From Acidobacteriota bacterium (lineage in GTDB: Bacteria > Acidobacteriota > UBA6911 > RPQK01 > JAPXNP01): a stretch of 25,533 bases of DNA. Below the pieces are notes generated by a model, which saw only the letters and a program-made list of their open reading frames with translations, was not told the origin of the DNA and did not search any database. The position numbers were made by a program, and so were the translations under genes. Shown here in pieces: positions 1 to 21,857 of the stretch; position 1 is the first letter of the stretch; every line of letters starts with the position of its first letter. The stretch is from contig DATKAT010000035.1 of assembly GCA_035514675.1 (NCBI GenBank), forward strand, positions 1 to 25,533, given 5' to 3'.

Positions 1-1
1 C

Positions 2-265
2 GTTTCGGGGATTGCGATTCTCGGACACCCGGACAATTTCCGTTTCCCTCAGCCGCTTCGAATTCACACCGGGTATCCCTATTTCGCATTCGCTCCGCAG
101 CGGATGGGTTCGATGGCGATCCAGCCGGGATCCACCTATCGGAGCCGATTTCGGTTCGTGGTGTTTGACGGACCAGCGGATACCGAATTGCTGGAAAGGC
201 TGTGGGGCGATTTCGCTGATCCAGCCGCCATCCGAATCGTCGATCCGGACGCGGAACGCAAATAG
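2..265 (+). CDS. 3' end of a gene entering from the left edge; resembles the PmoA-like/DUF6807 (PF14100) family
   Basis: Not in the ORF track. Frame 2 is open from base 2 to TAG at 263-265 and reads VSGIAILGHPDNFRFPQPLRIHTGYPYFAFAPQRMGSMAIQPGSTYRSRFRFVVFDGPADTELLERLWGDFADPAAIRIVDPDAERK*. The GIAILxHPxN..P and YxxRFRFVVxDG segments match my recollection of this family's C-terminus. Confidence 0.6.
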   Translation, partial: VSGIAILGHPDNFRFPQPLRIHTGYPYFAFAPQRMGSMAIQPGSTYRSRFRFVVFDGPADTELLERLWGDFADPAAIRIVDPDAERK

Positions 266-380
266 GCCGGCCGATCCGAACAGGGCGTTTAATCGAGTCG
301 CGATTCGCGATGGCTGAACCGTCGTAAATCGCCCCGGCGATCCGAGCCATGAGTTGCGGAACCGGCGCCTGCCTCCCGGA

Positions 381-1667
381 TCAGGTAGCCCTTCCCTCCG
401 GATACAGTCCGTCCGGAATCTCCAGGGCCGCCTGCTGCGTGACCGCTTCATGTCCCAGCGCGGTGGCTACGGCCGCATTCATTCCCTCGACGCCGTCGCA
501 GAGGTTGGGCGCGCCGTTGCGGATCGTGCGCGCGAAACCTTCCAGCTCCAGCCGGTAGGCCGTCAGGGCGTTAAAGGACACGCCGTCGCCGGTGACGGTA
601 GCTCCTGCGGCGTCCAATGCACGACTGGCCGAAGCCTGCATCACTGGCGCGTCCGCTTCAATGGTCTGCGTTCTGAGCTCCGTCGGCTCGTGGCCGCCTT
701 CGTAAAAGAGCATGGCGTCGCGCTCGCCGCTCAGCAGAATCGTTCCCTTCGTGCCCATGATCGCCTCGTAGTAGTGGTCCCAGGCGTTGGACTGGATCGA
801 CGAATAGCTGAAGGTCAGGTTCTCCGGGTACTCGTAAATCAGGTAAACGTGATCCGGAAGCTCTCTTCCATCCTGAAAGCGCTGGACGCCGCCGGTCCCG
901 TACACTTTTTGGGGAACCCGCTCGAAAAACCAGTTGACGACCTGCAGTTGGTGACTGCCCAGCTCGGCCATCAGTCCCAGCGAATACTTGTTGTAAAGCC
1001 GCCAGTTCGTCAAGTGCTCGAGGTCGGGGTAGCCCCACGGGCTCGGGTCGAATTCCACCTCCGGAACCCGCCGCCTCCAGTCGTTGTTTCGGTGCCAGAC
1101 GGCGCGGACGTGATAGACGTCTCCGATGACTCCGTTGTCGATCAGATTCTTGGCTTCCTGATACAGGGGATTGTAATTGCGCTGATGGCCGATCTGCAGG
1201 TTTCGTCTGGCGGACCGGGCGGCCTGAATCATCTGGTCGCATTCGTCGACGGTCTTGGCCATGTTTTTTTCGCAGAACACGTGCTTTCCGGCCTGCAGCG
1301 CCTCGACAGTCATGGGACCGTGCAGCCACAGAGGGGAAGCGATGATGACGGCCTCCAGATCCCTGCGCTCCAGCAGCCGCCGATAATCCTGGTACCCTTC
1401 GGCATACGGGTCATGCCGTTCCTGAGCGATCTTGAGGCCGCGTTCCAAATGCGAAGGAAGGATGTCGGCCACGGCCGAAATCCGGATGTGGGTCGGGGGA
1501 CAGTTCTCCAGCAGTACGCCTCCCTGTCCGCCGATTCCGATGACGCCTGCCTTGACCGGCGTCATCGACGTAGCCTTCCAGATCAGGCTGGCTGCAACCG
1601 GCGTGGCCGCCACGGCCTTCAAGAAGTTTCTTCGCCCGATTTTCTGTTGTTCTTCGGTCAGGTTCAC
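381..1667 (-). CDS. Gfo/Idh/MocA family oxidoreductase with twin-arginine signal (428 aa)
   Basis: GTG start with GGAG upstream. N-terminal GRRNFLK plus hydrophobic stretch; Rossmann motif AGVIGIGGQG; IASPLWLH; EKNMA in place of EKP; ELGSH. Confidence 0.9.
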   Translation of the reverse strand: MNLTEEQQKIGRRNFLKAVAATPVAASLIWKATSMTPVKAGVIGIGGQGGVLLENCPPTHIRISAVADILPSHLERGLKIAQERHDPYAEGYQDYRRLLERRDLEAVIIASPLWLHGPMTVEALQAGKHVFCEKNMAKTVDECDQMIQAARSARRNLQIGHQRNYNPLYQEAKNLIDNGVIGDVYHVRAVWHRNNDWRRRVPEVEFDPSPWGYPDLEHLTNWRLYNKYSLGLMAELGSHQLQVVNWFFERVPQKVYGTGGVQRFQDGRELPDHVYLIYEYPENLTFSYSSIQSNAWDHYYEAIMGTKGTILLSGERDAMLFYEGGHEPTELRTQTIEADAPVMQASASRALDAAGATVTGDGVSFNALTAYRLELEGFARTIRNGAPNLCDGVEGMNAAVATALGHEAVTQQAALEIPDGLYPEGRAT

Positions 1668-1679
1668 GGTCGGTTTCTC

Positions 1680-2147
1680 CTAGCGTCTGCGGATAATATC
1701 CAATCCTATCATACGACCCGTGGGCAAGGCAGCCAGCACCCAAAGCGCCAGAACTTCGATCAGGTTCTTGTCCACCCAGAGTTCGGTACCCTGTGGTCCG
1801 GGCGTGACGAATCCGGTGTAATCGAGTGGCGGCAACGCTAGATAGAAAAGTAGCACGAGGAATCCGCCCAGCAGAGCGGCAATCCGGGTAAACAGCCCCA
1901 CCATCAGCAGAACGCCCAGAATCATCAACCCCCAGATCACGACGATGTCCGCTATCGCCAGCAGAACCGGCTGATTCGCGATCCACGCAAAGAGGCCCCA
2001 GGAAGCTCTCAGGAACCCGGCAGAGCTCCACTCCACGGCCACTACTTTTCCGAAGCCCTGGTAGAAGAGATGCCACCCGATGGCGAAGCGGAGCGTTACC
2101 AGCAGAATCAGTTGCGGCATCGAAAACGAAGACGCGGGCAGGCTCAA
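1680..2147 (-). CDS. DoxX/DoxD-family membrane protein (155 aa)
   Basis: RFAIGWHLFYQGFGKV, GVLLMVGLFTRIAA and WVDKNLIE motifs; about four hydrophobic segments; TTG start overlaps the apbE stop (TTGA) with GGAGG upstream. Confidence 0.85.
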   Translation of the reverse strand: MSLPASSFSMPQLILLVTLRFAIGWHLFYQGFGKVVAVEWSSAGFLRASWGLFAWIANQPVLLAIADIVVIWGLMILGVLLMVGLFTRIAALLGGFLVLLFYLALPPLDYTGFVTPGPQGTELWVDKNLIEVLALWVLAALPTGRMIGLDIIRRR

Positions 2148-3175
2148 ATTTCCACCTCCGAAAGTTCCAGGAGGGACCCCCTCAGCGCGCCGAATCGCTG
2201 ATACAGAAACTCCCCCCCATCGCTCTCTTCTACCACGAGCGCGCCGATTTCGGAATTCCTTTCGCAGAATTCGTTGATTTCAGACGAAGAGAGCACGAAA
2301 AAAGCCGTCGCCAAGGCGTCGGCCCGAGCCGCCTCCGGGGCGACCACCGAGGCCAGCGCCCGATTTTCGACGGGCCATCCCGTTCGCGGGTCCAGAATGT
2401 GCCCGTACCGCTTCCCCCCATGCTCGAAGAACTGCTGATTGAGTCCAGAGGTCGCCAGCGCCTGATTCCGCAGCCTCACCCGAGCCACCGCCGTATCCGG
2501 CAGCCACGGGTGCGCAATCTCGACGTTCCATCCCGAATCCGGGCTTCCCGAGTCGCCCCAGGCCAGCATGCTGCTGTGGCCGGCATGCAGCAGAGCCGCT
2601 GAAAGCCCCGCCTCCTGCAGCACTGCCGCGGCCTGGTCCAGCGCGTATCCCTTGCCGATGCTTCCCAGATTGATTTCCATACCCGGTCGATTCAATCGAA
2701 CCGTCCCTTTCTTCGCGTCCAGATCGATCCGCCGGAAGTCTACATGCCGCAGCGCTTCAGAGATTTCTTCCGGGCTGGGCATCCGCCCCTTTCGCCTGTG
2801 AAATCCCCAGCAGCGCCACAGAGGGCTGGCAGAGATGTCGAACGCCCCGGCTGTCGCCCGGCAATGATCGAGCGCCTGTGAGAGAACGTCCACACAATCG
2901 GGGCCGAGCTCCAAAGGTCCTTCGGCGGCCAGGCGATTGATCCTTCCCAGATCGGAGTCCTCGCGAAAGTAGGACAGGCGGGCCTCCAGTTCCTGCACTC
3001 GGTTCAGGGCCAGATGCGCCGCCTCCATGCAGCTGCGGTCTTCGGCGCGGATTACGACCTCGAAAAGGCAGGCCATCGCCCGACGCCCGGCCCGAATCAG
3101 GCGGAGCGGGCCGTCCGGCAGAGGAGCCGACCGCGCCTGCAAGAATTCTCTCCGGGTTCGCCGCTTCGCATTCAT
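2144..3175 (-). CDS. apbE: FAD:protein FMN transferase (ApbE family), 343 aa
   Basis: INLGSIGKGYALD, ATSG, YGHILDPRTGWP and ADALATAF motifs. Confidence 0.92.
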   Translation of the reverse strand: MNAKRRTRREFLQARSAPLPDGPLRLIRAGRRAMACLFEVVIRAEDRSCMEAAHLALNRVQELEARLSYFREDSDLGRINRLAAEGPLELGPDCVDVLSQALDHCRATAGAFDISASPLWRCWGFHRRKGRMPSPEEISEALRHVDFRRIDLDAKKGTVRLNRPGMEINLGSIGKGYALDQAAAVLQEAGLSAALLHAGHSSMLAWGDSGSPDSGWNVEIAHPWLPDTAVARVRLRNQALATSGLNQQFFEHGGKRYGHILDPRTGWPVENRALASVVAPEAARADALATAFFVLSSSEINEFCERNSEIGALVVEESDGGEFLYQRFGALRGSLLELSEVEI

Positions 3176-3267
3176 CCGACCGTTGCTTCCTTTCGCCTCC
3201 TCACTACTTTAGCGCAGCCGCGGATTCCTCAGGATTTCTGGCTCCGAGACCGCTCGGACGGCCCCAC

Positions 3268-3296
3268 TTGCGAACAGGCGCCGCCTTGAACATAAT
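3268..3296 (+). promoter_or_regulatory. Putative sigma70 promoter for xylB-xylA
   Basis: TTGCGA (3268-3273), 17-nt spacer, CATAAT (3291-3296), ending 14 nt before the xylB ATG. Confidence 0.4.
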
Positions 3297-3310
3297 CGGC
3301 AAGCTGAACG

Positions 3311-4831
3311 ATGCGCTTTCTTGGAATCGATTGCGGAACGCAGAGCTTAAAGCTGTTGGCCTGGGATCCCGAAAAGCGGAAGTCCTGGTCGACGTCGGAG
3401 GAATACGGTCTGATCCAGGGGCTTCGGCCGGGTCATAAGGAGCAGGATCCTCAGGTCTGGATCCAGGCTCTGGAGACCTGTTTTGCAAAGTTCCGCCGTG
3501 AAGGCTTCGATTTCACCCGGATCGAGGGAGTGGGCGTTTCGGGGCAGCAGCACGGACTGGTGGTTCTGGACGACTCCGATCGGGTGATTCGCCCCGCCAA
3601 GCTCTGGAACGACACCAGCACGCAGCCGCAATGCGCTGCGGTCGTGGAACGGGCCGGCGGCCCGCAGGCCTACCAGCGCGAAATCGGAAATTTGCTGCCG
3701 CCGGGATTCACCGCCTCCAAACTCCTCTGGCTGAAGGAAAATGAGCCCAACAACTATCGGCAGGTGCGAACCTTCTTCCTTCCACACGACTACTTGAACT
3801 TTTATCTGACCGGCGAAAAGACGGCGGAACCGGGCGACGCCTCCGGAACCGGCTACTTTCAGGTGGCGGAACGGCAATGGTCGCTTCGAGCTCTGAAATG
3901 GATCGACCCGGAGCGCGACCTGAGCCAAGGCCTTCCGCGTTTGATAGCTTCTGCCGAACCGGCCGGCGAAGTGCGATCGCAGCTTCAAAAGAAATGGGGC
4001 TTCTCCAAGGGAGTCACGGTCAGCTCCGGGGGCGGCGACAACATGATGGGCGCCATTGGAACCGGCAACGTCGAGCCCGGCGTGCTCACCGTGAGCCTGG
4101 GCACGTCCGGTACGATTTACGCGTACAGTGAATCCCCGGTGATCGATCCCGCCGGCGAAATCGCCGCGTTTTGCGACAGCACGGGCGGCTGGCTTCCGCT
4201 GGGGTGTACGATGAACGTTACCGTCGCGACCGAGATGGTTCGCAAGCAGCTGCTTCAGGTGGACCACCCGAGATCGGAACGGCTTGCGGCATCGGTTCCC
4301 GCGGGATCCGACGGGCTCCTGCTGCTCCCCTATTTGGAAGGCGAGCGGATGCCGAACGTGCCCGCGGGAACGGGCGTGCTGCTCGGCCTCCGACCGTCGA
4401 GCTGCACTCCCGGTCATCTGGCGCGCGCAGCGATGGAAGGGGTGACGTTCGGCTTGAGGTTCGGCAGAAAACGCTTGGAGACGCTGGGCGTGTCAAGCGA
4501 CGAGATCCGCTTGACGGGAGGCGGAGCGCGCAGCCCCCTGTGGCGGCAGATCGTCGCCGACATCTTCGGATTGCCGGCGGTCTGTCCAGCCGATCTGGAG
4601 GGCCCGGCCTTCGGCGCCGCCCTGCAGGCGTTCTGGCGCCGGAGCGGCGAAGAGATGCGCCAGGTCAGCCGCAATCATCTGAAATTGGATGAATCGACCC
4701 GGTGCCGGCCGGACAAAGTTCGCGCAGATCTCTACGATCGCTTGTTTGAAGTTTATCAACGCTTGTCCGTTCAGTTGATCCAGAGCGACGTATTCCCCGC
4801 TCATCGATCGTTTATTCAAGGACGGACCTGA
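3311..4831 (+). CDS. xylB: Xylulokinase (FGGY family), 506 aa
   Basis: [40 protein letters not shown] and SLGTSGT motifs; directly upstream of xylose isomerase. Confidence 0.93.
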
Positions 4832-4848
4832 ATCGCAAAGGAGTTCTC

Positions 4849-6015
4849 ATGGCTGACTACGCGCCCCGCCCGGAACACAAGTTCACCTTCGGCCTCTGGA
4901 CGGTCGGAAATCCCGGTCGGGACCCGTTCGGGGAAGCCGTCAGATCGGCGCCCTCGCCGGTCGAAATCGTCCGCATGCTGGGCGAGCTGGGGGCGTGGGG
5001 AGTGAATTTTCACGACAACGACCTGGTTCCCATCGATGCATCGGCCGCCGAACGCCACCGGATCGTCCGCGACTTTCAGAGGACCCTGGACGAGTCGGGC
5101 GTGCGCGTTCCGATGGCCACCACCAATCTGTTTTCAGACCCGGTGTTCAAAGACGGCGCTTTTACGTCGAACGACGCCGATATTCGGGCCTACGCTCTTC
5201 AGAAGACGATGAACGCCATCGATCTGGGAGTCGAGCTGGGCGCCGGAGTGTACGTTTTCTGGGGAGGCCGCGAGGGGGCGGAAGTGGACGCCGCCAAGGA
5301 CGCAGCGGAAGCTCTGAAGCGGATGCGCGAGTGCATGAATTTTCTAATCGCTTACGTGAAAGATCAGGGCTACGATCTGAAATTCGCATTGGAAGCAAAG
5401 CCGAACGAACCCCGGGGAGACATCTATCTGGCGACCACCGGCCACATGCTGGCTTTTATCGAGACGCTGGACGATCCCGAAATGGTGGGAGTCAATCCGG
5501 AAATGGCGCACGAGCAAATGGCGGGGTTGAACTTCTACCACAATCTCGCCCAGGCATGGGATGCCGGAAAGCTGTTTCACGTCGACTTGAACGATCAGAA
5601 GCCGGGTCGCTTCGATCAGGACCTTCGCTTCGGTTCCGAAAACGTCAAGGCCTGCTTTTTCCTCGTGAAATTTCTCGAAGACGTCGGATACGAAGGCTCT
5701 CGACACTTCGACGCCCACGCATACCGGAGCGAGGATTTGGCCGGCGTTCGCGACTTCGCGGCCGGATGCATGCGCACCTACCTGATCCTGAAGGAGAAAG
5801 CCCGGAGGTTTCGCGAGGACCGGGAGATTCAGCAGATTCTGGAAGAACTGAACTCGGCGGATTCCCCATGGGCACCCATAATGCGGCAGTATTCCCGCGA
5901 AAACGCCCGCCTGATCAGGGAAGCCTCGCTGGACCGCAAGGAGCTGGCAAGCCGGCCACTTCCCTACGAACGCCTCGATCAACTGGTCGTGGAGCTGCTC
6001 ATGGGCGTGCGGTAG
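4849..6015 (+). CDS. xylA: Xylose isomerase, short class I (Thermus/Streptomyces-like), 388 aa
   Basis: [47 protein letters not shown] and HFDAH motifs; AAGGAG SD. Confidence 0.96.
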
Positions 6016-7541: not shown

Positions 7542-8666
7542 CTACTTCACTTTGACCCACTTCTTTGATTTCGCCGACTCTTCCATGGCGTGGAGCACCT
7601 TCTGATTCTTCACCCCGTCCTCGAAATTAGGAGACGGAATCGTTCCTTCATGAACCGCCTTCAGCAGGTCGTAGACGGTATGCGTAAAGGTATGCTCGTA
7701 CCCGATGATATGACCCGGAGGCCACCACGCGCCGAAATAGGGATGCGCCGACTCGGTGACCAGGATTGTGCGGAAACCCTGGCTGTATACCGGGTCGTCA
7801 GTGAGATACAGCTCGAGTTCATTCATCCGCTCCAGGTTGAAGGCCAGGCTTCCCTTGCTGCCGTTGATTTCGAAGCGATTGTAGTTCTTTCGCCCCGTGG
7901 CGAACCGGGAGGCCTCGATCGTGCCGAGCGCTCCGTTTTGAAATCGAACGATGGCGGCCGAGGCGTCATCGACGGTGACCTTCCCCATTTTCCGAGGCCG
8001 ATCCGGAAGCGGACGTTCTTTGATAAAGGTTTGGAGGGCGGCCGAAACTTCCAAGATCTCTCCAACCAGGTATCTTGCCAGGTCGATCGAATGGGAGCCG
8101 ATATCTCCCAGGGCGCCCGACCCCGCCTTCTTCCTGTCCAGGCGCCAGACCAGGGGAAACTTCGGATCGACGATCCAGTCTTGCAGATAGGTCCCGCGAT
8201 AATGATACAAGTCGCCGAGGCGGCCTTCTTCGATCAACTGCCTTGCCAGGGCTACGGCGGGCGCCTTTCGATAGTTGTGGCAGATCATGTGGGTGGCCTT
8301 GGCCTTCTGCACGGCCTTGTACATCGTGACGGCCTCGTCGACGGTGTTGGCGAGCGGCTTTTCGCAGAAGACGATTTTTCCCGCGCGCGCGGCCGCAACG
8401 GCGATTTCGGCGTGCGTGTCGCCGGGCGTGCAAATGTCGATCAAGTCGATGTCGTCCCGCTGCACTGCTCTTCGCCAATCGGTTTCCACTTCCTGCCATC
8501 CGTATTGTCGAGCGGCCTTTTTCGCCTGTTTCTCATCCCGCCCGCAGATCACCTTCATGACCGGTTCGATCGGCGGACCGAAAAACGCCTTCACTTGCCG
8601 ATAGGCGTTGCTGTGAGCTTTCCCCATGAATGCGTACCCGATCATCGCTACATTGATTTTGTTCAT
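7542..8666 (-). CDS. Cytoplasmic Gfo/Idh/MocA oxidoreductase (374 aa)
   Basis: Start moved to [15 protein letters not shown] at 8666, with GAGGAG SD. Canonical EKPLA and GALGDIGSH motifs; [14 protein letters not shown]. Confidence 0.92.
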
Positions 8667-8802
8667 TCGCTCCTCGCTTTCCCGCCCCCACGGCGGATTG
8701 ACCAGCTTTCGGCGGAAACGGCTGCGCCGAGGCGGCAAAGACCGAACCCGCCGGAAACCGGGACTCACTCCCAGACCGCGGATTCAACCGCTTGCATTGG
8801 AA

Positions 8803-18824: not shown

Positions 18825-20156
18825 ATGAAGCATTGGAACAGACGGGATTTTATCAAGCGGTCGGCGGTGTCGGCAGTCGCCGCGCCGATCGTGATCGCAG
18901 CCGTGGAGCGAGTTTCCGGGGCCGCCGAACGGATTCAGGTCGCGGCCGCGGGAGTGCGCGGACAGGGGCGAGCCAATATCGCTGGATTTCAACAGCTCCC
19001 CAATGTCGAGGTGGCGGCCATTTGCGACGTCGATGAAAACGTCCTGGCGGAACGGGTGAAGGAATTCGAAGATCGCGGCTGGAAGAAACCCACGACCCAT
19101 ACAGACATTCGCAAGCTGCTGGAAAATCCGGAGATCGACGTCGTCAGCTTCGCCACGCCCAACCACTGGCACGCTCTGGGAACCATTTGGGCCTGTCAGG
19201 CGGGCAAGGACGTCTACGTGGAGAAGCCGGCCTCCCACAACATCTGGGAGGGCCGGAAGATGGTCGAAGCGGCTCGAAAATACAATCGGATCGTGCAAAC
19301 CGGAATGCAAATCCGCAGTTCCATCGGAGTGCGCGCGGCGATCGACTTCATGCGCAGCGGGCAACTGGGCGAGGTCTATATGGCCAAAGGGCTTTGCTAC
19401 AAATGGCGGGATACGATCGGACGCACGCCGGACGAGCCGGTTCCAGCGGGCGTCGATTACGATCTCTGGCTGGGACCGGCGCCGGTCCGCGCCTTCTCCA
19501 GAAACCGGTTTCATTACAACTGGCACTGGCACTGGGACTATGGCAACGGTGACATCGGAAATCAGGGCGTGCACCAGCTCGACATCGCCCGCTGGGGGCT
19601 TGGCCTGGATCAACATCCCGTCCGCGTCTCCTCGATGGGCGGACATGTGATGTTTGACGACGATCAGGAGACTCCCAACGTTCAGCACGCAGTCTTCGAA
19701 TATCCCACCACGGAAGTGACTGGAGGCAAGAAGTTGCTGCAGTTCGAAGTCCGGCACTGGATCAGCAACCACGAAGGGGGCGTTAGCGAAGGCGCTCAGG
19801 ACAACATCGGAGTCATTTTTTACGGCTCCGAAGGGTATCTGGTGATCGACAGCTACTCAAGCTGGCGCAGCTATCTGGGACGCGAACGGACTCCTGGGCC
19901 CCACGCCACTGCCGGGGGCGATCATTACGGTAACTTCATCGAAGCCGTCCGCTCGCGCGACCGGTCGCTGCTCAACTGCGACATCGAGGAGGGACATCTG
20001 AGCGCCACCCTGAATCACCTGGCAAATATCTCCTACAGACTGGGACGGTCATTGGATTTCGATCCGCAAAAGGAGCGCTTCAGGAAAGACGAAGAAGCCG
20101 ACGGGATGCTTTCCCGCCAGTACCGCGCGCCGTTCGTAATACCGAAAGAGGTCTGA
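18825..20156 (+). CDS. Tat-exported Gfo/Idh/MocA oxidoreductase (443 aa)
   Basis: NRRDFIK twin-arginine signal; ATPNHWH, DVYVEKP, YDLWLGPAP and WHWHWDYGNGDIGNQGVH motifs; AAGGAG SD. Confidence 0.92.
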   Translation: MKHWNRRDFIKRSAVSAVAAPIVIAAVERVSGAAERIQVAAAGVRGQGRANIAGFQQLPNVEVAAICDVDENVLAERVKEFEDRGWKKPTTHTDIRKLLENPEIDVVSFATPNHWHALGTIWACQAGKDVYVEKPASHNIWEGRKMVEAARKYNRIVQTGMQIRSSIGVRAAIDFMRSGQLGEVYMAKGLCYKWRDTIGRTPDEPVPAGVDYDLWLGPAPVRAFSRNRFHYNWHWHWDYGNGDIGNQGVHQLDIARWGLGLDQHPVRVSSMGGHVMFDDDQETPNVQHAVFEYPTTEVTGGKKLLQFEVRHWISNHEGGVSEGAQDNIGVIFYGSEGYLVIDSYSSWRSYLGRERTPGPHATAGGDHYGNFIEAVRSRDRSLLNCDIEEGHLSATLNHLANISYRLGRSLDFDPQKERFRKDEEADGMLSRQYRAPFVIPKEV

Positions 20157-20693: not shown

Positions 20694-21857
20694 TCAAGAA
20701 TGCAATCGCGGGATCTCGGTCCAGCTCCGCTTTTGATGAGATTCCAGAGCCTTTTCGGCCAGTTGCACGCCCCTGGCCCCCGCCAGCAGTGTCCAGGGAA
20801 ACGGACTCCCTGTGACGACGTGCTTCAGGAACTCCTCCCACTGGGCCTGAAAAGCGTTGCCGTACTCCATCTGATCGGGAACCTTCATCCAGTCCCGAAA
20901 ATAGTCGAGCGACGCCTCAACGTCCGGGTCCCAGACGGGCCTTGGAGTCCCGTCCAATGGCTGTATCCAGCAGTCCCCAAGCCCCGCCACTGCCGATCCA
21001 CGCGTCCCGTCCACCTGGAGCGTCAGCAGGTCGTCGCGCCTGACCCGCACCGCCCAGGAGGAATTGAAATGGGCCACGACGCCGCCGGAAAGCTCAAAGG
21101 TGGCGTATGCAGCGTCGTCGGCGGTGCACTGGTACGCTTTCCCCCTTTCATCCCATCGCTCCCGCAGGTGGGTGGCGGCATGACAGCTGAGTCTTTCCAC
21201 CGGGCCGAAAAGCCCTTCCAGCAGGTAATGCCAATGGGGAAACATGTCCAGAACGATCCCGCCTCCGTCCTGTTGACGATAATTCCACGACGGTCGTTGG
21301 CTTGGAACCGCGTCTCCGACGAAGACCCAGTATCCGAACTCTCCCCGGATCGACAGGATCTCCCCAAAGAATCCGCTTTCCACCAGAGATCTTAGTTTTT
21401 GAATGCCGGGCAGCCAGAGCTTGTCCTGCACCACCCCGTGCCGCAACCCCGCCTCTTCGGCCTTCCGATAAAGCCGATACGCCGTATTGGAGTCCTCGGC
21501 TACCGGCTTTTCGCAGTAAACGTGCTTTCCTGAATCAATCGCCTGCTCGACGGACTCCGCGCGCAGACGGGTCAACTGCGCATCGAAGTAAATGGAATAC
21601 GCGGGGTCCTCCAGAACGGCGCCGAGATCCGTCGTCCAGCTTTCGATCCCGTACTGTCGGGCCAGCCCCTCCAGCTTGGCCGCGTTTCTCCCGACCAGTG
21701 CAACCGGATCGGGCAGAATCGATTCCTCGTCGCTCAGGCGGACGCCGCCCTGAGCGATGATAGGCAGAATCGACCTTTTCAGATGCTGATTCGACCCCAT
21801 TCGTCCAGTCGCGCCGTTGAGTACGATTCCGATGCGGTGGATTTTTCGCTTCGACAT
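20694..21857 (-). CDS. Cytoplasmic Gfo/Idh/MocA oxidoreductase (387 aa)
   Basis: IGIVLNGATGRMG, HVYCEKPVA, GEFGYWVF, QRPSWNYR and LDMFPHW motifs. Confidence 0.9.
   Translation of the reverse strand: MSKRKIHRIGIVLNGATGRMGSNQHLKRSILPIIAQGGVRLSDEESILPDPVALVGRNAAKLEGLARQYGIESWTTDLGAVLEDPAYSIYFDAQLTRLRAESVEQAIDSGKHVYCEKPVAEDSNTAYRLYRKAEEAGLRHGVVQDKLWLPGIQKLRSLVESGFFGEILSIRGEFGYWVFVGDAVPSQRPSWNYRQQDGGGIVLDMFPHWHYLLEGLFGPVERLSCHAATHLRERWDERGKAYQCTADDAAYATFELSGGVVAHFNSSWAVRVRRDDLLTLQVDGTRGSAVAGLGDCWIQPLDGTPRPVWDPDVEASLDYFRDWMKVPDQMEYGNAFQAQWEEFLKHVVTGSPFPWTLLAGARGVQLAEKALESHQKRSWTEIPRLHS

Follow-up and report, generated by a model that had tools for sequence, protein, structure and literature searches.

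What do a flavin transferase, a small DoxX-type membrane protein and an exported dehydrogenase do side by side in an acidobacterial genome, and could the first two give the third a way to be re-oxidised outside the cytoplasm? The question is raised by a stretch of 25,533 nucleotides (contig DATKAT010000035.1 of GenBank assembly GCA_035514675.1; hereafter the window), which forms contig C35 in a genome of 2.53 Mb and 370 contigs (completeness 85%) whose relatives are Acidobacteriota. At positions 381-3175 it holds three co-oriented, tightly packed minus-strand open reading frames, apbE, doxX and a gene of the Gfo/Idh/MocA family, whose product we call the operon Gfo. The preliminary description of this DNA read them as an operon for a candidate flavinylated extracytoplasmic sugar dehydrogenase linked to the quinone pool, and the gene features on which it drew, namely co-orientation, a TTGA overlap, a 12-nt gap and a twin-arginine signal on the Gfo protein, are all present in the sequence. 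The operon consists of:

2144-3175, minus strand: apbE, 343 amino acids, FAD:protein FMN transferase family (FAD, flavin adenine dinucleotide; FMN, flavin mononucleotide), PF02424 E 1.6e-72
2144-2147, minus strand: TTGA overlap of the apbE TGA stop and the doxX TTG start (an alternative in-frame doxX start, ATG, lies at 2120)
1680-2147, minus strand: doxX, 155 amino acids, small membrane protein of the DoxX/DoxD family, PF07681
1668-1679, minus strand: doxX-Gfo spacer of exactly 12 nt, from the doxX TAG to the Gfo GTG start
381-1667, minus strand: Gfo/Idh/MocA gene, 428 amino acids, NAD(P)-type oxidoreductase, PF01408 + PF02894 + PF22725

We propose that the three genes form one functional module, in which the Gfo/Idh/MocA protein would contain NAD(P) and act as a dehydrogenase of sugars or glycosides. 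The operon ApbE would attach FMN by a phosphoester bond to a serine in an insert loop of the Gfo protein (Ser346, alternatively Ser348), most likely in the cytoplasm, and the folded protein would then be exported via the twin-arginine translocation (Tat) pathway and probably remain at the membrane. There, a periplasmic substrate would reduce the Gfo-bound NAD(P)+, the tethered flavin would re-oxidise the bound NAD(P)H, and electrons would move from the flavin to the quinone pool at DoxX. Taken as a whole, this chain of a loop-flavinylated, Tat-exported NAD(P) dehydrogenase passing electrons through DoxX to quinone stands, in our estimate, at about even chances.

Conservation of the ApbE-DoxX-Gfo trio

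Conservation of the gene neighbourhood, which the preliminary description had named as the first check on its proposal, extends across Acidobacteriota and Gemmatimonadota and to one Akkermansiaceae record, even where ApbE and Gfo identities to the window proteins fall below about 30%. An ApbE-anchored survey recovered ApbE-DoxX-Gfo in three of four long-contig neighbourhoods. The DoxX-anchored set comprises 61 loci, drawn from Acidobacteriota and Gemmatimonadota with single records from Akkermansiaceae and Bacteroidota; in essentially every locus of sufficient length the genes run ApbE, DoxX, Gfo on a single strand, and identity to the window proteins drops to 28-31% for ApbE and 24-31% for Gfo. 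Sampling of 401 Acidobacteriota genomes gave 28 orthologues of the operon Gfo (E < 1e-90), all 28 of which adjoin a DoxX match, while the DoxX subfamily itself occurs in 65 of the 401 genomes (35 of 227 genera) and in many Gemmatimonadota. At 16 more distant DoxX loci, DoxX again adjoins a Gfo gene with a Tat leader; ApbE was detected at 12 of these 16, and a second gene order, ApbE-Gfo-DoxX, is found at eight.

The arrangement thus recurs across phyla, far beyond chance, and apbE, doxX and the Gfo gene are very probably linked in function. That they are chance neighbours without a shared function has something to draw on in this genome, where tblastn gives 13 Gfo matches on 10 contigs in 2.5 Mb and where ~2.8 kb separate the ApbE copy of contig C230 from a Gfo gene, a proximity that is probably due to chance because Tat-Gfo paralogues are so numerous. 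For the trio itself such a reading is extremely improbable and is already contradicted by the conservation data: against it stand the 4-nt overlap and the 12-nt gap, the adjacency to DoxX of every orthologue sampled, and a synteny retained at less than 30% protein identity.

Several members of the trio family differ from the window in ways worth recording. On a complete acidobacterial chromosome (L028:6548-7818) the trio Gfo breaks off near residue 324 and continues in a second, overlapping frame, which could be due to decay of the gene or to indel errors in long reads. The ApbE of this locus, at 38% identity, diverges more than any other in the acidobacterial set, and a Gfo match in genome G136 resembles this split case. 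The Gemmatimonadota trio Gfo proteins (L059:6530-8266 and others among L030-L068) carry an acidic, proline-rich extension of 50-65 amino acids upstream of the twin-arginine motif, an n-region of unusual length for a Tat signal, and an additional insert of ~30 amino acids within the Rossmann domain. A third type of trio (L165-L167, L170, L172-L174 and L176) has the order ApbE-Gfo-DoxX and a Gfo protein of ~480 amino acids, whose loop reads [AL]DVRE[ST]V[SA]PD and in which a recognisable [ST]GA[ST] motif is absent.

ApbE, the exported Gfo protein and its candidate FMN site

By its scores the operon ApbE belongs to the FMN transferase family (244.7 bits against PF02424, cut-off 25.6), and its 124.7 bits against the E. 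coli-type equivalog NF007774 of NCBIfam, well below the cut-off of 498, mark it as a family member and not the housekeeping equivalog. Its best solved relatives are FmnB and Ftp/ApbE. Across 11 homologues Ser243, His259 and Asp286 do not vary, and they align to FmnB (7esa), the catalytic Ser-His-Asp residues being S241/H257/D285 in Vc_ApbE and S257/H273/D301 in FmnB (PMC12052999); judged from this alignment, the catalytic triad is intact. Two segments of the protein matter here:

2318-2449, minus strand: ApbE catalytic segment, from Ser243 via His259 to Asp286 (from the translation; triad per PMC12052999)
3137-3163, minus strand: twin-arginine-like RRTRREFLQ at the ApbE N-terminus, with no hydrophobic stretch after it

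In the window protein the leader-like motif is followed by ARSAPLPDGPLRLIRAGRR, with a 20-residue spacer that is not hydrophobic, and the N-terminus does not fit a lipoprotein or Sec signal, either of which is typical, if not universal, for periplasmic ApbE proteins. Acidobacterial homologues retain [ST]RRxFL, with a hydrophobic h-region in some only, and in Gemmatimonadota homologues the leader is absent altogether. The motif persists even in clade members whose next segment is too short and too polar for a signal peptide, so that it may be the vestige of a Tat leader or may serve some other purpose. From these N-termini we take ApbE to be probably cytoplasmic, or to bear a vestigial Tat leader only. 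The Tat pathway exports folded, cofactor-loaded proteins. The simplest reading is therefore that flavinylation precedes export and takes place in the cytoplasm, where an ApbE without a working signal peptide would most likely attach FMN.

The preliminary description had noted that the usual ApbE clients are missing from the window, and this is borne out: FMN_bind, NqrB/RnfD, DUF2271 and DUF3570 are found neither in the window nor elsewhere in the genome (85% complete), the DUF3570 search being a weak one whose control matched nowhere. The genome holds three ApbE copies, all of which are therefore orphans by the current catalogue of clients. A genome-wide six-frame scan for D..[ST]GA[ST] gave 15 matches, mostly in spurious arginine-rich frames, and among them no convincing client.

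The operon Gfo has the hallmarks of its family, with G44, G46 and G49 (GxGxxG), E133 and K134 (the conserved EK) and H239 invariant in 34 homologues. Its AlphaFold 2 model (mean predicted local distance difference test score, pLDDT, 80) has a normal Gfo fold except at residues 331-365, and among PDB structures it best matches the periplasmic aldose-aldose oxidoreductase and glucose-fructose oxidoreductase (GFOR; Foldseek E ~1e-22). The protein begins with MNLTEEQQKIGRRNFLKAVAATPVAASLIW, a good twin-arginine consensus, and GRRNFLK is followed by AVAATPVAASLIW, which adds the hydrophobic region; R12, R13 and F15 are invariant in the same number of homologues, a helix is predicted across residues 5-34, and the score against the Tat model TIGR01409 falls just short of its cut-off (16.6 against 16.7 bits). 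Its segments of interest are:

1566-1667, minus strand: Gfo residues 1-34, a Tat signal or perhaps a membrane anchor (GRRNFLK, 1617-1637)
573-677, minus strand: Gfo residues 331-365, a flexible loop inserted in the C-terminal domain (35 residues, pLDDT < 50)
621-647, minus strand: PVMQASASR, the foremost candidate for FMN attachment (Ser346, 630-632; Ser348, 624-626)
597-614, minus strand: DAAGAT, Asp352-Thr357, a motif look-alike that corresponds to the downstream G-x-x-V element of canonical relatives

It is the insert loop, placed in the model between the last strands and the C-terminal helices, that suggests a connection of this protein with flavinylation. The acceptor motif of ApbE is D-x-x-[S/T]-G-A-[S/T] (PMC12052999). 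Relatives of the operon Gfo were collected from 1.84 billion representatives, with 374 matches below 1e-30, and many of them, 34-40% identical to it, read VDG[VMI]SGAT, TGAS, VAGAT or similar at the homologous loop. For four Gfo representatives (P0159, P0162, P0183 and P0247) the contigs, of 1.4-2.7 kb, were too short to give a useful gene neighbourhood. For the clade with this motif, a sister clade, a metagenome scan gave 80 loci (L075-L154), in which DGV[STA][GS]AT is present at 79 loci, DGVSGAT at 68 and an RRx[FLIVM] leader at 75. The Gfo proteins of the Gemmatimonadota trios read GVDAVTTAT or DAVTTPT, DAVTTAT being near-canonical, and other acidobacterial trio proteins read DAVTTAT, DTVTSAT or DVRESVSPD.

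Within the clade of the operon Gfo itself (27 proteins), S346, S348 and R349 never vary, and conservation reaches 90% or more at P341, A345, A353 and G355. When the profile of this clade is aligned with that of the canonical one (hhalign, probability 100), S346 falls opposite the modified Thr, A345 opposite the motif Ala and V342 opposite the motif Val, so that the ASAS segment is our best candidate for the homologous site, with S346 ranked first and S348 second. A separate preference expressed at first reading, for Thr357 of DAAGAT as the primary site, did not survive the comparison, because that residue is variable (relatives continue after DAAG with GSS, GSQ, GTA, GGAA, GQS or GRT) and the profile alignment favours Ser346. 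With the modified Thr aligned to Ser346 and not to Thr357, the window motif is a degenerate one, and flavinylation of the operon Gfo is accordingly a matter of comparison with its relatives. The idea of an exported Gfo as ApbE client, as first put forward, gains from the homology of its loop to the canonical motif loop and from natural fusions of DoxX to flavinylation-motif domains (see below), and is held back by the degeneracy of its own site. On balance we lean towards flavinylation of the operon Gfo by ApbE, as these alignments suggest. In the motif mutagenesis summarised in a review, the Asp was dispensable, G-to-A and A-to-V exchanges each roughly halved flavinylation, and only the hydroxyl residue was essential (PMC12052999).

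A number of observations weigh against the proposed chain. The loop alignments disagree by up to two residues: BLASTP of the operon Gfo puts the canonical Thr on S346 against one relative (P0162) and on A347 against another (P0159), and the MAFFT alignment puts it on S348. The window site A-P-V-M-Q-A-S346 agrees with D-x-x-[ST]-G-A-[ST] at positions 3, 6 and 7 only. In the sister clade DoxX is adjacent at none of the 80 loci and ApbE at one, 39 of the 80 having at least 2 kb on both flanks; DoxX is thus not required by every motif-bearing Gfo and is not a universal partner. The locus was matched only in soil metagenome DNA runs and in 0 RNA runs. At 85% genome completeness a classical ApbE client could have been missed. 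The prediction of a Gfo-DoxX complex scored 0.00, which is evidence neither way.

In another explanation, the module is real and the Gfo protein of this clade is no longer, or never was, covalently flavinylated. Its AS(E/A)SR loop would then be a docking or regulatory element, for DoxX for example, and ApbE would act as a FAD pyrophosphatase, or in flavin trafficking for non-covalent FMN, or would modify some other target. The degenerate motif of the window and its clade fits this, as does the canonical clade, which does without an adjacent ApbE, and some ApbE/Ftp proteins hydrolyse FAD instead of transferring FMN (PMC4767422). We nevertheless consider it rather unlikely, in view of the invariance of S346 and S348 at the position homologous to the modified Thr, the intact transferase triad, the Ser/Thr residues retained in the loops of two other ApbE/DoxX-linked clades (DAVTTAT and DVRESVS), and the failure to find another client in the genome. 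As to the sister clade, its loops and leaders suggest flavinylated glycoside dehydrogenases served by an ApbE encoded elsewhere, and its data fit a pattern in which canonical motifs are served in this way and divergent motifs travel with a dedicated ApbE. This clade is large and mostly marine, and the usual neighbours of its Gfo genes are a second Gfo gene and a double 3-keto-disaccharide hydrolase gene.

DoxX, the proposed quinone link and the substrate

The DoxX protein of the operon scores 25.5 bits against PF07681 (cut-off 23.6). Of 31 members of its subfamily, 30 match the DoxX model and 14 match DoxD (PF04173), and an LRFAIGWH(L/F)F(Y/F)xG block is strongly conserved, in which R20, F21, G24, W25, H26, F28 and G31 are invariant. 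DoxD is the membrane, quinone-side subunit of thiosulfate:quinone oxidoreductase, and from this family-level knowledge we infer that DoxX passes electrons to quinone. The preliminary interpretation stands in part: the trio is conserved, and the Gfo protein as ApbE client has gained comparative support, whereas the degenerate site, the family-level basis of the quinone step and a sister clade with neither DoxX nor, at all but one locus, ApbE beside its Gfo genes hold it back.

The strongest link between DoxX and flavinylation comes from natural fusions of ~529 amino acids, in which a DoxX domain of four transmembrane helices is joined to an RRxL transmembrane helix, a flavinylation motif and a C-terminal domain of ~290 amino acids that has no family match in Pfam. 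They occur in one Bacteroidota and several Acidobacteriota genomes, their motifs read VDAVTGAT, VDTLSGAT, VDTVSSAT, VDAVSSAT or LDGMTTAT, and apbE adjoins two of them, in one case at L160:7098-8201. The fusion proteins are encoded at:

L063:5968-7557
L155:5722-7326
L157:1235-2821
L158:3208-4794
L160:5453-7039

Could DoxX instead be something other than a quinone reductase, namely a membrane anchor, an assembly factor or a flavin-supply helper for a flavinylated Gfo whose electrons go to a cytochrome, a soluble carrier or oxygen? The weak Pfam match and the canonical-motif Gfo clade, with no DoxX beside it, would accommodate this, and the route by which FAD reaches periplasmic ApbE is not known (PMC12052999), which would leave room for a helper. 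We regard it as unlikely, given what the DoxD subunit does and how much of the subfamily matches DoxD; moreover, fusions of DoxX to an NADH dehydrogenase of extracellular electron transfer and to flavinylation-motif domains fit electron transfer better than transport. A flavin-supply role in particular is at odds with an ApbE that appears to be cytoplasmic, for which export of FAD would be unnecessary. In the reading that we prefer, DoxX would receive electrons from the flavin of a Gfo protein in contact with it and pass them on to quinone.

As to what is oxidised, neighbouring genes point to sugars or glycosides as the substrate class. A xylulokinase-like gene (xylB), sometimes with a xylose isomerase gene (xylA), is divergent from the trio in nine DoxX-anchored acidobacterial loci, and an AP_endonuc_2 gene is divergent in 16 DoxX-anchored loci, acidobacterial ones included; Gemmatimonadota-type loci have a major facilitator superfamily symporter gene 3' of Gfo and a 3-keto-disaccharide hydrolase gene nearby. 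Membership of the BT_2158/BT_2159 glycoside 3-dehydrogenases was considered and rejected, the operon Gfo scoring 69.6 against 750 for NF058561 and 25.3 against 650 for NF058563, with its relatives likewise below; none of the NCBIfam equivalog cut-offs is reached by the operon Gfo.

GFOR and aldose-aldose oxidoreductase hold a non-dissociable NADP. Their place as best structural matches raises the possibility that the operon Gfo is itself redox-neutral, running with bound cofactor either as a GFOR-like two-sugar ping-pong enzyme or through glycoside cleavage by oxidation, elimination and reduction, with ApbE and DoxX serving only to rescue enzyme trapped in the reduced state. The 3-keto-disaccharide hydrolase and xylose-isomerase-like TIM-barrel genes that accompany its relatives would suit such chemistry. 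Yet ApbE and DoxX are strictly co-inherited with Gfo, across phyla and in both gene orders, which speaks for an obligatory role and not an occasional one, and we hold a purely redox-neutral enzyme to be improbable. Returning to the respiratory chain proposed above, we tentatively offer a more specific version, which we think possible if somewhat doubtful. A leaderless ApbE would flavinylate a non-canonical Gfo serine in the cytoplasm, and Tat would export the holo-enzyme with both NAD(P) and FMN. In the periplasm the tethered flavin would swing into the active site as a built-in second substrate that re-oxidises a tightly held, non-dissociable NAD(P)H, so that a GFOR-type ping-pong enzyme becomes a respiratory sugar:quinone oxidoreductase with DoxX as its quinone site. 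Dedicated ApbE proteins would have co-evolved with at least three divergent acceptor motifs (DAVTTAT, PVMxAS(E/A)SR and DVRESVS).

Related systems and genomic setting

The closest parallels are the orphan-apbE clients with DUF2271 or DUF3570 domains and the membrane systems associated with flavinylation that Méheust et al. 2021 (eLife, PMC8238504) surveyed, in which a dedicated apbE likewise lies beside an extracytoplasmic redox protein with a Ser/Thr motif and a membrane protein linking to the quinone or cytosolic electron pool. In contrast to those systems, the proposed client here is a Rossmann-fold NAD(P) dehydrogenase where theirs have FMN_bind or DUF domains, DoxX takes the place of a NapH-, MsrQ-, PepSY- or DsbD-like protein as membrane partner, and ApbE is without a signal peptide. 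That survey retained only clusters with a predicted signal peptide on ApbE, FMN_bind, DUF2271 or DUF3570, and its text mentions neither Gfo nor the ApbE-DoxX-Gfo trio (PMC8238504). The trio is likewise not mentioned in the 2024 follow-up preprint or the 2025 review, and no description of it came from literature searches in which ApbE or flavinylation was paired with DoxX, with names of the Gfo type or with 3-keto terms. A leaderless cytoplasmic ApbE has a precedent in Klebsiella pneumoniae, where it serves fumarate reductase (PMC12052999), and twin-arginine leaders are found on the ApbE family members NosX/NirX (PMC7660919). In contrast to both, the leaderless or vestigial-leader ApbE of the operon would modify a protein that is later exported by Tat, a combination for which we found no description.

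The flavin-based extracellular electron transfer of Gram-positive bacteria (Listeria Ndh2, FmnB and PplA) also pairs a DoxX-type domain with ApbE-type flavinylation, Ndh2 being listed as a Pyr_redox_2+DoxX fusion. Whereas in Listeria electrons flow outward, from cytosolic NADH via quinone to flavinylated PplA, the flow proposed here would be inward, from a periplasmic dehydrogenase to quinone. The Zymomonas GFOR and the Caulobacter aldose-aldose oxidoreductase share the fold of the operon Gfo; both are Tat-exported enzymes whose tightly bound NADP is re-oxidised by a second substrate in the same site. Unlike the operon Gfo, they lack a flavin loop, the 331-365 insert being absent, and have neither an ApbE/DoxX partner nor a respiratory link. 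The BT_2158/BT_2159 glycoside 3-dehydrogenases are also exported Gfo proteins, and like them the canonical sister clade and the Gemmatimonadota trio adjoin 3-keto-disaccharide hydrolase genes; the window, which has divergent xylB and xylA instead, differs in this respect as well as in the family scores of its Gfo. Membrane-bound sugar dehydrogenases with pyrroloquinoline quinone (PQQ) or FAD, and DoxDA, show how an extracytoplasmic dehydrogenase can hand electrons to membrane quinone. The proposed outcome here is alike, while the catalytic partner and cofactors differ, NAD(P) and a tethered FMN taking the place of PQQ or of FAD with cytochrome c.

If the proposed chain is correct, NAD(P)-dependent Rossmann dehydrogenases would be a new class of ApbE substrate and DoxX a new membrane partner for flavinylation-based extracytoplasmic electron transfer, and it would be explained how Gfo enzymes can run as net oxidases after export although their nicotinamide cofactor is trapped. 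Such a module could let soil bacteria feed their respiration from sugars or glycosides that they do not import; because the DoxX subfamily occurs in Acidobacteriota and Gemmatimonadota, both abundant soil phyla, it could be a common respiratory route. The pairs of divergent acceptor motif and dedicated ApbE would furthermore be new orthogonal flavin tags for protein labelling.

Around the operon, the xylB-like gene and xylA lie divergently at 3311-6015, and the 3' end of a DUF6807 gene converges on it. A promoter and terminator scan of positions 1-3500 found no operon-relevant signals above shuffled background. Elsewhere in the genome, contig C349 (L003: 1-789, 795-1694 and 1869-3044) carries a second, leaderless ApbE directly between two Gfo genes. 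The loop of the upstream Gfo has the variant LLADATQLL, which is also present in representatives P0247, P0260 and P0268 ([VI]ADAT[KQ]); on the downstream Gfo an RRDFL leader is present, and no motif was found in the portion of this protein on the contig. The window itself encodes four Gfo paralogues, and the loop motif is found only in the operon Gfo, the insert-loop motif being absent from the other three:

7542-8768, minus strand: Gfo/Idh/MocA paralogue
18825-20156, plus strand: Gfo/Idh/MocA paralogue with an RRDFIK leader and a PF19051 C-terminal domain
20694-21857, minus strand: Gfo/Idh/MocA paralogue

In all, the genome holds at least eight Gfo genes with a Tat leader.

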